Positions 4,173 to 58,938 of a stretch of 64,000 nt of DNA are shown in pieces. A model generated the notes under the pieces. The model did no database searches and was not told the DNA's origin. It was given only the letters and a program-made list of their open reading frames with translations. Position numbers and translations under genes: made by a program. Source of the DNA: a virus (lineage: Duplodnaviria > Caudoviricetes); the IMG/VR virus record IMGVR_UViG_3300046318_000439, positions 96,001 to 160,000 of that record. The stretch is one strand, 5' to 3'. Within the stretch, counting starts at the first letter, position 1; the number at the start of each line of letters is the position of its first letter.

Positions 4173-5054
4173 ATGAATAGTCTGCAAGAAAAGAAAATTC
4201 TCGTCCACATGAAGCAACGCTTAGGCGAAGAGGTACCACAATCTTTGTTGAATGAGATTAATGAGGAAGAAGCAGCAATTGTTGCTGCAGAGCAAAAACA
4301 GCTAGCACTCCAAGAAGAACGCAAAAGCGCGTTCAAAGGTATCTTTGCAGACCTATCATTACAACTTGGTCAGCTGATGGCTGAGGAGAAGAAAAAGACA
4401 GAAGAAGAACAAGCTCTATTAGATCGCTTCGCTAATGTTTTAGAACATGTCGATCAAATCAAATCTCAAATAGCAGAACGTAAGGAACAAACGACAGAAG
4501 AGTTTATCGAGGATATTATTCCACAAGAGATATTAGAAACTACTTCTATTGTTCTTGCTCCAGAAGAACCACCAAAGCGACCTCCAATCAAAGATCCTAT
4601 CAAAGATGTTGTAGATAAGATAAAGGCAACTAAACCCTCTTCAATGTTTATTCAGCCAGATCCGGTACCAGTGAGCAGAGATATCAAAGATATCCAAAGC
4701 AAGCTAAAGATGTTAGAGGGATGGGTTAGCAAGATATCAATGACTGGTCCTGGGGGTGGTGCTGGTAGCGTCGATCAACTCGATCACAGAACGCACGTAG
4801 TGGTTAGCGATAGTTATAATATTAGCAGGCATGACTATTACGTCGGAATTGATTATCCTGGAAATGTTGCTGTGTACTTGCCTACAACTGTATCAAATGG
4901 CCGAGTGCTCGTAATCAAAGATGAATCAGGCAGTGCCGCTCATTATCCTATTACAGTGGTTGGAAGAGTAGACAATGACCCAGATGGTTTTATTTTAAAA
5001 ATTAACAATGGAGCCGTGCAACTCATATACAGTAACGGCTGGAGAATAATATGA
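4173..5054 (+). CDS. Putative virion protein (N-terminal coiled coil, C-terminal beta-rich domain)
   Basis: Late promoter upstream; C-terminal GRVLVIKDESG...GAVQLIY resembles phage fibre/collar modules. Confidence 0.45.
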   Translation: MNSLQEKKILVHMKQRLGEEVPQSLLNEINEEEAAIVAAEQKQLALQEERKSAFKGIFADLSLQLGQLMAEEKKKTEEEQALLDRFANVLEHVDQIKSQIAERKEQTTEEFIEDIIPQEILETTSIVLAPEEPPKRPPIKDPIKDVVDKIKATKPSSMFIQPDPVPVSRDIKDIQSKLKMLEGWVSKISMTGPGGGAGSVDQLDHRTHVVVSDSYNISRHDYYVGIDYPGNVAVYLPTTVSNGRVLVIKDESGSAAHYPITVVGRVDNDPDGFILKINNGAVQLIYSNGWRII

Positions 5055-57338: not shown

Positions 57339-57929
57339 TTAGGCAGTTTTGAACCCCACAGCTCCACCTTCTGCTTCAATACGCTTAATTACATCCTCAA
57401 ACAGTATAGGCGCAAAGTCTGGTAGTTGCTCTACGCTGACGTTATGATATCTAGTATCAATCTCATCACCATATAGAACCTCTCCTGTCTTTGCATCAAC
57501 ACCTCTTGGCTTCATAACTCTATTAGAATGTAAGTGGCCGTGAATGTTAACACCAAAGCGACCTAAGCTATCAGAGTGAATAGGAATATGGCTTAGGATC
57601 ATTCCGTTCAATATGTGGTAGGCACGAAGCTCCCGGAAGTATTGTCTGTATTCATCGTCTCGGAAGATATCATGATTACCGCGGATCAATACCTTATCAC
57701 CATTGAGACGAGCTAATGTAGGCAATGCTTTACGATTAATCACAACATCCCCTAAGTGATAAACCTTGTCTGTAGGCTTAACTCTCTCGTTCCATGCTTT
57801 GATCATATCCTCATCCATCTCGGCAGGATCGTCCCATGGACGAAGTTTCGTAACGCCATCGCTACGTGTGAAGCGGCAAACGCCAGTGTGACCAAAGTGC
57901 GTATCGCTTACTAGAAATACTGACGGCAT
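57339..57929 (-). CDS. Calcineurin-like phosphoesterase
   Basis: SDTHFGH, HLGD, GNHD, SHIP and HGHLH. Confidence 0.9.
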   Translation of the reverse strand: MPSVFLVSDTHFGHTGVCRFTRSDGVTKLRPWDDPAEMDEDMIKAWNERVKPTDKVYHLGDVVINRKALPTLARLNGDKVLIRGNHDIFRDDEYRQYFRELRAYHILNGMILSHIPIHSDSLGRFGVNIHGHLHSNRVMKPRGVDAKTGEVLYGDEIDTRYHNVSVEQLPDFAPILFEDVIKRIEAEGGAVGFKTA

Positions 57930-57949
57930 TTGCTACTCCTTTCAAAAAA

Positions 57950-58040
57950 GATAGTTTGCTTCTACTGAAGGAGATCTATCAACTCCCACTCACATTTATT
58001 TTAACAGGTCGTGAGCTTGACAGACACAAGGCCTCCTGTT
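57950..58040 (-). ncRNA. Candidate tandem H-type pseudoknot RNA
   Basis: AACAGG/CCTGTT crossed with CTCAC/GTGAG; GGAG/CTCC crossed with GATAG/CTATC. Confidence 0.5.
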
Positions 58041-58042
58041 TT

Positions 58043-58126
58043 TGGTGGAGCATCCTGGGATCGAACCAGGCATGTCTAAGACGGCGGATTTACAATCCAC
58101 TGCATCACCATTGATGCTTCTGCTCC
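58043..58126 (-). tRNA. trnY: tRNA-Tyr(GTA)
   Basis: Cloverleaf, long variable arm, encoded CCA; one acceptor-stem mismatch. Confidence 0.9.
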
Positions 58127-58130
58127 AAAT

Positions 58131-58252
58131 TAGTGCTGGGTATGAAATCCAGCGACACTTTCTCGGAGTGTCCGATCCTCTTGCTTCAAACGCTGGTATG
58201 CTACCACAAGCCTCCCGTCGTCTATTGTTTATACTCGCTTCCGAACCCGAGT
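58131..58252 (-). ncRNA. Candidate structured RNA between tRNA-Asn and tRNA-Tyr
   Basis: ACTCG/CGAGT, TGGTA/TACCA and GACAC/GTGTC hairpins; loop-loop TCGGA/TCCGA complementarity. Confidence 0.5.
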
Positions 58253-58269
58253 TTTCTTAAACCACAATG

Positions 58270-58851: not shown

Positions 58852-58938
58852 TGGTGCTGACCATAGGATTCGAACCTACGTTGGGATTACTCCGCCTGAT
58901 TACAAGTCAGGTGCCTTCAACCGCTCAGCCAAGTCAGC
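58852..58938 (-). tRNA. trnT: tRNA-Thr(TGT) with a long variable arm
   Basis: GCTGACT/GGTCAGC acceptor; CCTGA-CTTGTAA-TCAGG anticodon arm; 15-nt variable region; CCA. Confidence 0.8.

Follow-up and report, generated by a model that had tools for sequence, protein, structure and literature searches.

Besides its tRNAs, the tRNA operon of bacteriophage T4 carries at its end the genes for two small non-tRNA RNAs, rnaC (species 1, 139 nt) and rnaD (species 2, 119 nt), which are co-transcribed with the tRNAs, excised by the same enzymes and stable; to our knowledge, their function has remained obscure for decades. HDV-like theta ribozymes have been described at the 3' ends of phage tRNAs, with the cleavage site no more than 1 nt away from the tRNA 3' end in 77% of cases (PMC10879173). 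A survey of viral RNAs lists 10,006 candidates, 8,495 of which are unnamed IMG/VR candidates (PMC10690425). The window analysed here (64,000 nt of DNA, positions 96001-160000 of an IMG/VR virus record that measures 202,272 bp and has direct terminal repeats) carries on its minus strand, directly after a tRNA-Tyr gene, a 90-nt element of a kind that is already known and unexplained, i.e. the passenger RNAs of phage tRNA operons. With respect to Rfam the element is new as a family: no Rfam family matched two of its copies searched alone at E <= 10, or the element within a 3-kb stretch at E <= 1.

The element and its surroundings in the window

The surroundings of the element are the tRNA region of a T4-like phage, with genes on the minus strand for the RegA translational repressor (PF01818, E = 8e-43), a dCMP deaminase and a radical-SAM/B12 protein. 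The same strand carries tRNA genes for Glu, Gly, Thr and Asn identified by ARAGORN, a weak HNH-type match between the tRNAs (PF13392, E = 1.4e-4, under the curated cut-off) and another short frame, rich in Cys and His, for which Pfam gave no match. The element and its immediate neighbours are as follows:

58043..58126, minus strand: tRNA-Tyr (GUA) with encoded CCA at 58045-58043, the upstream neighbour of the element
57950..58039, minus strand: the whole conserved element, 90 nt (covariance model R1, 118.6 bits)
57930..57949, minus strand: U6 run (57944-57949) and AAGGAG ribosome-binding site (57936-57941) of the phosphoesterase gene
57339..57929, minus strand: calcineurin-like metallophosphoesterase gene (PF00149, E = 1e-06), the downstream neighbour

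The tRNA-Tyr gene was missed by ARAGORN and is identified by the Rfam tRNA model (RF00005, 33.5 bits at 58046-58126). Its CCA is followed by AA and then by AACAGG from 58040, which leaves a gap of 2-3 nt before the element; at the other end the element finishes with CTATC at 57950, and the ATG of the phosphoesterase gene lies 20 nt onward, at 57929.

Several features of the tRNAs themselves are unusual. The tRNA-Tyr(GUA) of the window exhibits an atypical D region, and its homologues in two of the related contigs described below (L314 and L317) score only 29.2 bits, at the Rfam threshold. The tRNA-Thr(UGU) (58852-58938, minus strand) is 87 nt long; in the Rfam alignment its variable region contains an insertion of 12 nt, which gives it a long-armed body, unusual for Thr. 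Between tRNA-Asn and tRNA-Tyr lies a 142-nt non-coding stretch (58127-58268, minus strand), whose predicted fold is unremarkable (z = -0.49); since the same tRNA pair is spaced by 5-9 nt in L083 and L314, this stretch is an insertion specific to the phage of the window. In another related phage contig (L026) ARAGORN predicts a tRNA with a CUA anticodon (4452-4525, plus strand), labelled Pyl, which could be an amber-suppressor tRNA.

The preliminary description of the locus, whose letters, coordinates and distances all agree with the window sequence, had proposed that the element consists of two tandem H-type pseudoknots, here called PK1 and PK2. The parts of the model to which the analysis led are listed below in the 5' to 3' order of the RNA:

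58035..58039, minus strand: 5' strand of P1, ACAGG (stem 1 of PK1; the same in all six copies; partner 58004-58008)
58022..58034, minus strand: P2 hairpin, AGGC, loop CUUGU, GUCU (predicted independently by RNAalifold)
58016..58021, minus strand: conserved unpaired junction GUCAAG (GUCAA invariant, final base G or A)
58011..58015, minus strand: 5' strand of P3, CUCAC (stem 2 of PK1; partner 57989-57993)
58004..58008, minus strand: 3' strand of P1, CCUGU (invariant in all six copies)
57994..58003, minus strand: A-rich loop 3 of PK1 (sequence variable)
57989..57993, minus strand: 3' strand of P3, GUGAG (covaries with 58011-58015)
57983..57986, minus strand: 5' strand of P4, GGAG (stem 1 of PK2; invariant; partner 57970-57973)
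57976..57980, minus strand: 5' strand of P5, GAUAG (stem 2 of PK2; covaries with 57950-57954)
57970..57973, minus strand: 3' strand of P4, CUCC (invariant except for AUCC in L083)
57960..57969, minus strand: P6 hairpin, UUC, loop AGUA, GAA (invariant across copies)
57950..57954, minus strand: 3' strand of P5, CUAUC (end of the element)

PK1 is drawn as a knot because the 3' strand of P1 lies inside the loop of P3. The window copy can add a sixth pair to P1 (A58040-U58003), P5 encloses a loop of 21 nt, and the last C of the P4 strand CUCC has an alternative partner, G57959, with which it would extend P6.

Taken by itself, the window sequence says little about these pairings. The minimum-energy nested fold of 57930-58042 is ordinary (z = -1.45; 18 of 200 shuffles fold as well). 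It had been argued that four crossing helices seem unlikely to arise by chance. A tandem (5+5) plus (4+5) knot pair occurs in 19 of 5000 dinucleotide shuffles (0.4%), which is rare for one stretch of 93 nt; a perfect H-type knot of 5+5 bp by itself is present in 1184 of 5000 (24%). Even the figure for the tandem has to be read against the approximately 1400 stretches of 93 nt that, by our estimate, the 64-kb window offers on both strands, so that the statistics of the window alone prove little. The minimum-energy fold of the window copy also contains a long-range helix between GUCUGUCAA and UUGAUAGAU, which was rejected as the other copies lack it. Nested minimum-energy folds vary from copy to copy, and the scheme of six helices is common to all.

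Search for relatives

Relatives were sought with sequence and pattern scans of viral contigs for pieces of the element, combined with a covariance model (R1) built from three copies. These searches revealed six distinct copies in five phage lineages and seven IMG/VR contigs: the window copy, L082, L083, L314 (identical in L315 and L316) and two copies in L317 (a and b). The five copies other than that of the window obtained R1 scores of 84-121 bits. When the five carrier records were searched whole with R1, each proved to contain one copy, except L317 with two.

Beyond these carriers the element was not found. R1 yielded no match in 40 whole related contigs, and INPHARED cultured phages yielded no genuine match. 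Scanning of 185,579 bacterial and archaeal genomes gave zero matches or chance matches that failed R1, two scans of metagenome contigs gave nothing or chance matches, and nearly all matches of 14-mer scans of viral contigs were due to chance. With filters off, the T4 tRNA region reached at most 7.5 bits with R1 (E = 1), and the weak matches do not fall on rnaC or rnaD. The sole new match of a stem-only pattern (L313) was discarded as a chance hairpin, the new loci obtained with a pattern of the PK1 core (L320-L325) were discarded as chance matches in coding sequence, and a third, combined pattern found no further copies in viral contigs.

For the neighbouring DUF458 gene, 6,831 homologues were found. 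A search anchored on the phosphoesterase gene covered the 80 nearest loci (protein identity 84-91%), none of which contains an R1 match to the element; other genes lie upstream instead, and in the loci examined the DNA similarity to the window ends 14-28 nt upstream of the phosphoesterase start codon. The element is thus not tied to the phosphoesterase gene. It should be added that members of the phosphoesterase family adjoin the element on either side, downstream in the window (57339-57929, minus strand) and upstream in L317 (1557-2165, minus strand), and that the 80 other loci homologous to the phosphoesterase locus do without it. Its absence from these 80 loci and from the 40 related contigs indicates that the element is dispensable for most of the clade. 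On the strength of the matches found, the element family is real but rare.

Covariation and structure

The structure was evaluated on a model-based alignment (A4) of the six copies, with all six helices counted, including the crossings; these sequences represent three PK1 types and four PK2 types in total. Standard pairs occupy 98.1% of the pair cells, compared with 36-58% after a shift of the partners by 1-3 columns. The preliminary description had named similar pairing in shuffled controls, or a lack of covariation, as outcomes that would speak against it; what was found is a covariation score of 0.240 against 0.109 +/- 0.022 in shuffles, with none of 500 shuffles reaching the observed value. 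Five pairs exhibit changes on both sides, and the covarying helices are P3 and P5, i.e. the second stem of each proposed knot, together with the hairpin P2. The conserved form of P2 is AGNC/GN'CU, in which the pair at columns 11-20 is G-U in three copies, C-G in two and U-A in one. P3 reads CUUUC/GAAAG in L314, with two compensatory pairs, and CUCAU/GUGAG in L317, with one C-G to U-G change. P5 exhibits two compensatory pairs and is stretched to 7 bp in three copies, its variants elsewhere being GCUAG/CUAGC, UGUUGGU/AUCAACA and UGUUAGU/ACUGACA. The CTTG/CAAG inner hairpin of the preliminary description has to be given up: it is missing in L314 and L317 and clashes with P2, which replaces it.

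P1 (ACAGG/CCUGU) and P4 (GGAG/CUCC) are invariant, save for one G-A break in P4 of L083. As they never vary, the knot crossings are compatible with the data and covariation is silent on them; likewise, the invariance of P6 neither supports nor contradicts its pairing. RNAalifold is unable to represent knots; its own prediction contains P2, P3 with one extra pair (G-U/A-U, alignment columns 28-58), P5 and P6. The crossing order of P1/P3 and P4/P5 is pairable in all six copies, again except for the G-A in P4 of L083. Two indirect observations speak for the crossings. After masking of the covarying helices, P1 and P4 come out as the best pairings left in every one of the six copies; when the covarying helices are fixed in the window copy, the leftover bases pair at -8.7 kcal/mol, compared with -2.1 +/- 1.7 for shuffled bases, a value equalled in 13 of 3000 shuffles of the unpaired bases. 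Loop 2 of PK1 measures 2 nt and its loop 3 measures 10-12 nt and, as the preliminary description had it, is A-rich, in all copies; loop 1 of PK2 spans 5-7 bp with 2 nt, and loop 3 measures 15 nt. By general pseudoknot geometry these lengths are sterically possible. The tandem-pseudoknot drawing can be called half proven, as the alignment shows covariation in one stem of each knot and an unchanging sequence in its partner stem; the two modules are most simply read as H-type pseudoknots, in which P1 and P4 would make the crossings.

G-U pairs account for 13 of the 168 pair cells, and these would be mismatches on the other strand, which identifies the strand of the RNA with that of the tRNAs. A protein-coding reading was rejected, as no frame is open across the copies. 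About 25 unpaired bases of the element are invariant. As far as six sequences can tell, there is selection on RNA pairing on the tRNA strand, and the element is a genuine, conserved, structured RNA.

Genomic context and modular halves

All six copies are located inside rows of tRNA genes:

Window copy: preceded at 2-3 nt by the CCA of tRNA-Tyr; followed by the U6 run, AAGGAG and the phosphoesterase gene
L082: preceded by about 170 nt of non-coding sequence after tRNA-Asp; followed by a U run, a ribosome-binding site and an ORF
L083: preceded by tRNA-Asn, tRNA-Tyr and the stop codon of an HNH gene; followed after 4 nt by tRNA-Thr
L314: preceded at 10 nt by tRNA-Ile; followed after 5 nt by tRNA-Trp, in a row of 16 tRNAs
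L317a: preceded by about 90 nt of non-coding sequence after tRNA-Ile; followed after 6 nt by tRNA-Trp
L317b: preceded by the stop codon of a phosphoesterase gene; followed after 4-5 nt by tRNA-Thr

Thus four copies lie 4-6 nt before the 5' end of a following tRNA, two lie 2-10 nt after a preceding tRNA, namely the window copy (2-3 nt) and that of L314 (10 nt), and the other four lack a tRNA directly upstream. The element-to-tRNA spacings resemble those between the tRNAs themselves, and in its placement the element behaves as an extra gene in the tRNA row. The initial description placed it at the 3' terminus of the operon, which holds for this window only. An intrinsic terminator was considered and rejected: the loop of P5 is as long as 21 nt, a U run follows the element in two of the six copies (the window and L082), and none was called on the minus strand at the element. 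As a separate observation, the sequence downstream of the element in L082 (580-600, minus strand) resembles that of L083 (3595-3690, plus strand) with the tRNA-Thr exactly removed, a U/A-rich tract and AAGGAGAGUAA coming next in both; judged from this comparison, the junction seems to have gained or lost a tRNA gene.

The two halves of the element (PK1, A4 columns 4-57; PK2, A4 columns 58-100) differ in their relationships, as the following pairwise identities demonstrate:

Window and L082: PK1 half 100%, PK2 half 81%
Window and L083: PK1 half 100%, PK2 half 79%
L314 and L317a: PK1 half 70%, PK2 half 100%
L082 and L317b: PK1 half 78%, PK2 half 100%

These discordant values indicate that the PK1 and PK2 halves have been reshuffled as modules between phages, presumably by recombination within the invariant GUGGGAGUU joint. 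The type of the PK2 stem goes with the downstream tRNA, GCUAG with tRNA-Trp and UGUURGU with tRNA-Thr. The PK1 halves of the window and L083 are identical, whereas the tRNA-Tyr and tRNA-Asn genes of the same two phages share 83.5% and 80.5% identity, respectively; where otherwise diverged phages have identical halves, the cause may be recent lateral exchange and not selection.

Possible functions of the element

We see roughly an even chance that the element, lying in the tRNA operon of an uncultured T4-like phage, specifies a small non-coding RNA of ~90-100 nt with a tight fold. Such an RNA would be co-transcribed with the tRNAs from the minus strand and excised by the tRNA-maturation machinery of the host, its 5' end arising when the preceding tRNA has its 3' trailer trimmed, and its 3' end, if another tRNA comes next, when RNase P cleaves 4-6 nt downstream. 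The six short helices would fold into two modules and these into a compact particle, which would resist exonucleases and accumulate. Its probable action in trans would use the invariant unpaired GUCAAG and UUCAGUAGAAGCAAA to bind a protein or a second RNA. Release by tRNA processing, suggested in the preliminary description, draws support from the context, i.e. from the slot that the element occupies in the tRNA rows, 2-10 nt after or 4-6 nt before a tRNA. Against excision it has to be said that an RNA still attached to the neighbouring transcript would look identical in the DNA, and that after two copies, those of the window and of L082, a U run and a ribosome-binding site take the place of a tRNA, which leaves the 3' ends of these copies undefined. 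Should the RNA remain attached, the element might be a cis-acting stabiliser or insulator of tRNA-mRNA junctions, its fold being kept on the end of the neighbouring mRNA after the tRNA-processing cuts and blocking 3'-to-5' exonucleases or the 5'-end-dependent entry of RNase E; this would be the exonuclease-blocking element of the preliminary description. Four of the six copies do lie where mRNA and tRNA meet, in the order ORF stop codon, element, tRNA (L083 and L317b) or element, ribosome-binding site, ORF (window and L082); yet the element of L314 sits between two tRNAs, with no mRNA to protect, a plain GC-rich hairpin would suffice for the purpose, and the approximately 25 invariant unpaired bases suggest specific recognition over bulk stability, so that we regard this role as unlikely. 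A reading with no function at the RNA level, in which co-conversion associated with homing endonucleases has spread a DNA tract between phages and its pairings are incidental, could appeal to the HNH genes beside or near several copies and to halves with different histories, such as those of L314 and L317a. It is disfavoured by the covariation, with compensatory changes in three helices, G-U pairs confined to one strand, and P5 rebuilt with unrelated sequence and another length and still pairing, and we consider it very improbable.

The small-ligand riboswitch of the preliminary description fares no better, and we would be most surprised if it proved correct. Its mechanism would be competition of the CUCC strand of PK2 for the Shine-Dalgarno sequence of the next gene: the nested minimum-energy fold of the window brings CUCCUUCAG into pairing with the AAGGAG site in front of the phosphoesterase gene, the same complementarity is present in L082, and PK1 is shaped like the small pseudoknot aptamers, with an A-rich third loop. 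However, four of the six copies precede a tRNA and not a ribosome-binding site, no Rfam aptamer matches at E <= 10, and the element is unlike the folE leader pseudoknot of this very phage. The CUCCUU strand formed by P4 and P6 complements the AAGGAG site 30 nt downstream (57930-57973, minus strand), and as any CUCCUU strand complements any strong Shine-Dalgarno sequence, this match carries little weight. A self-cleaving ribozyme of a new class that separates the tRNAs from the neighbouring RNA would have a precedent in the ribozymes directly beside phage tRNAs (PMC10879173), and it would suit the compact, possibly doubly knotted fold with its many invariant unpaired bases and the start of the window copy 2-3 nt after the CCA of tRNA-Tyr. 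Arguing against it, none of the Rfam ribozyme models matches even at E <= 10, the order of the helices (P1, P2 hairpin, 5' strand of P3, 3' strand of P1, 3' strand of P3) differs from the HDV order, and the distance from an upstream tRNA amounts to 2-3 nt for the window copy and 10 nt for that of L314, the remaining four copies having no adjacent upstream tRNA; this role appears quite improbable. Another idea is that the two stacked knots mimic a tRNA or another substrate and thereby act as a decoy for a host nuclease that targets tRNAs in phage defence. For this decoy and the new ribozyme freeing tRNAs jointly, i.e. for a new class of functional RNA linked to tRNAs, we see a slender prospect.

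Comparison with known systems

The likeness of PK1 to classical H-type pseudoknots (the preQ1-I and SAM-II riboswitches, viral frameshift signals) lies in its stems of 5-6 bp and its A-rich loop 3, which could lie in the groove of stem 1, and the 2-nt loop 1 by which PK2 spans a stem 2 of 5-7 bp is the usual geometry of such knots. PK1 differs from them in that its first loop holds a whole hairpin and GUCAAG. Compared with pseudoknot aptamers, the element lacks a ligand-contacting consensus, its loop 2 being only GA or AA, and in contrast to pseudoknot riboswitches most of its copies are not in a 5' leader. The preQ1-I, -II and -III, SAM-II and -V, fluoride and guanidine-III models gave no match (3 kb at E <= 1, two copies at E <= 10).

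In tobacco mosaic virus, a eukaryotic RNA virus, the 3' untranslated region contains an upstream pseudoknot domain followed by a tRNA-like structure. The element resembles this arrangement in having tandem knots 5' of a tRNA shape, with a real tRNA after it in four of six copies, and is not known to bear any sequence relation to the viral domain.

In HDV ribozymes the strands are ordered P1, P2, P3, P3', P1', P4, P4', P2', with the catalytic C in J4/2. This is a nested double knot, in which P2 opens before the P3 hairpin and closes last, and the order of the element is a different one. Theta ribozymes are likewise small pseudoknotted RNAs beside phage tRNA genes, with a proposed role at tRNA ends; however, most of them abut the tRNA, whereas the element does not come within 1 nt of it and more often precedes a tRNA than follows one. 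They also come mostly from gut phages, whereas the contigs with the element are derived from environmental metagenomes.

The closest counterparts of the element are the rnaC and rnaD genes of T4, which likewise specify small non-tRNA RNAs within a tRNA operon, lie a few nt from tRNAs and have genes for homing endonucleases in the same cluster. There is no homology of sequence or structure between them and the element (R1 <= 7.5 bits). T4 rnaC ends in a tRNA-like T arm, whereas the element lacks a T loop and a CCA and its two ends do not form an acceptor-like helix, the 5' end being paired internally and not with the 3' end; the Rfam tRNA model does not match it. By analogy, it is thus the role and not the ancestry that would correspond to species 1 and 2 of T4. 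The element would then represent a second kind of passenger RNA in phage tRNA operons, with a fold unrelated to that of the T4 species and carried by an abundant but uncultured group of T4-like phages. With its clear covariation, its compact and probably knotted build, its defined helices and its invariant loops, it offers a testable object of 90 nt for the question of what the non-tRNA RNAs in rows of tRNA genes do, be it in processing, in stability or in interference with host defences aimed at tRNAs, a question that it shares with species 1 and 2 of T4.
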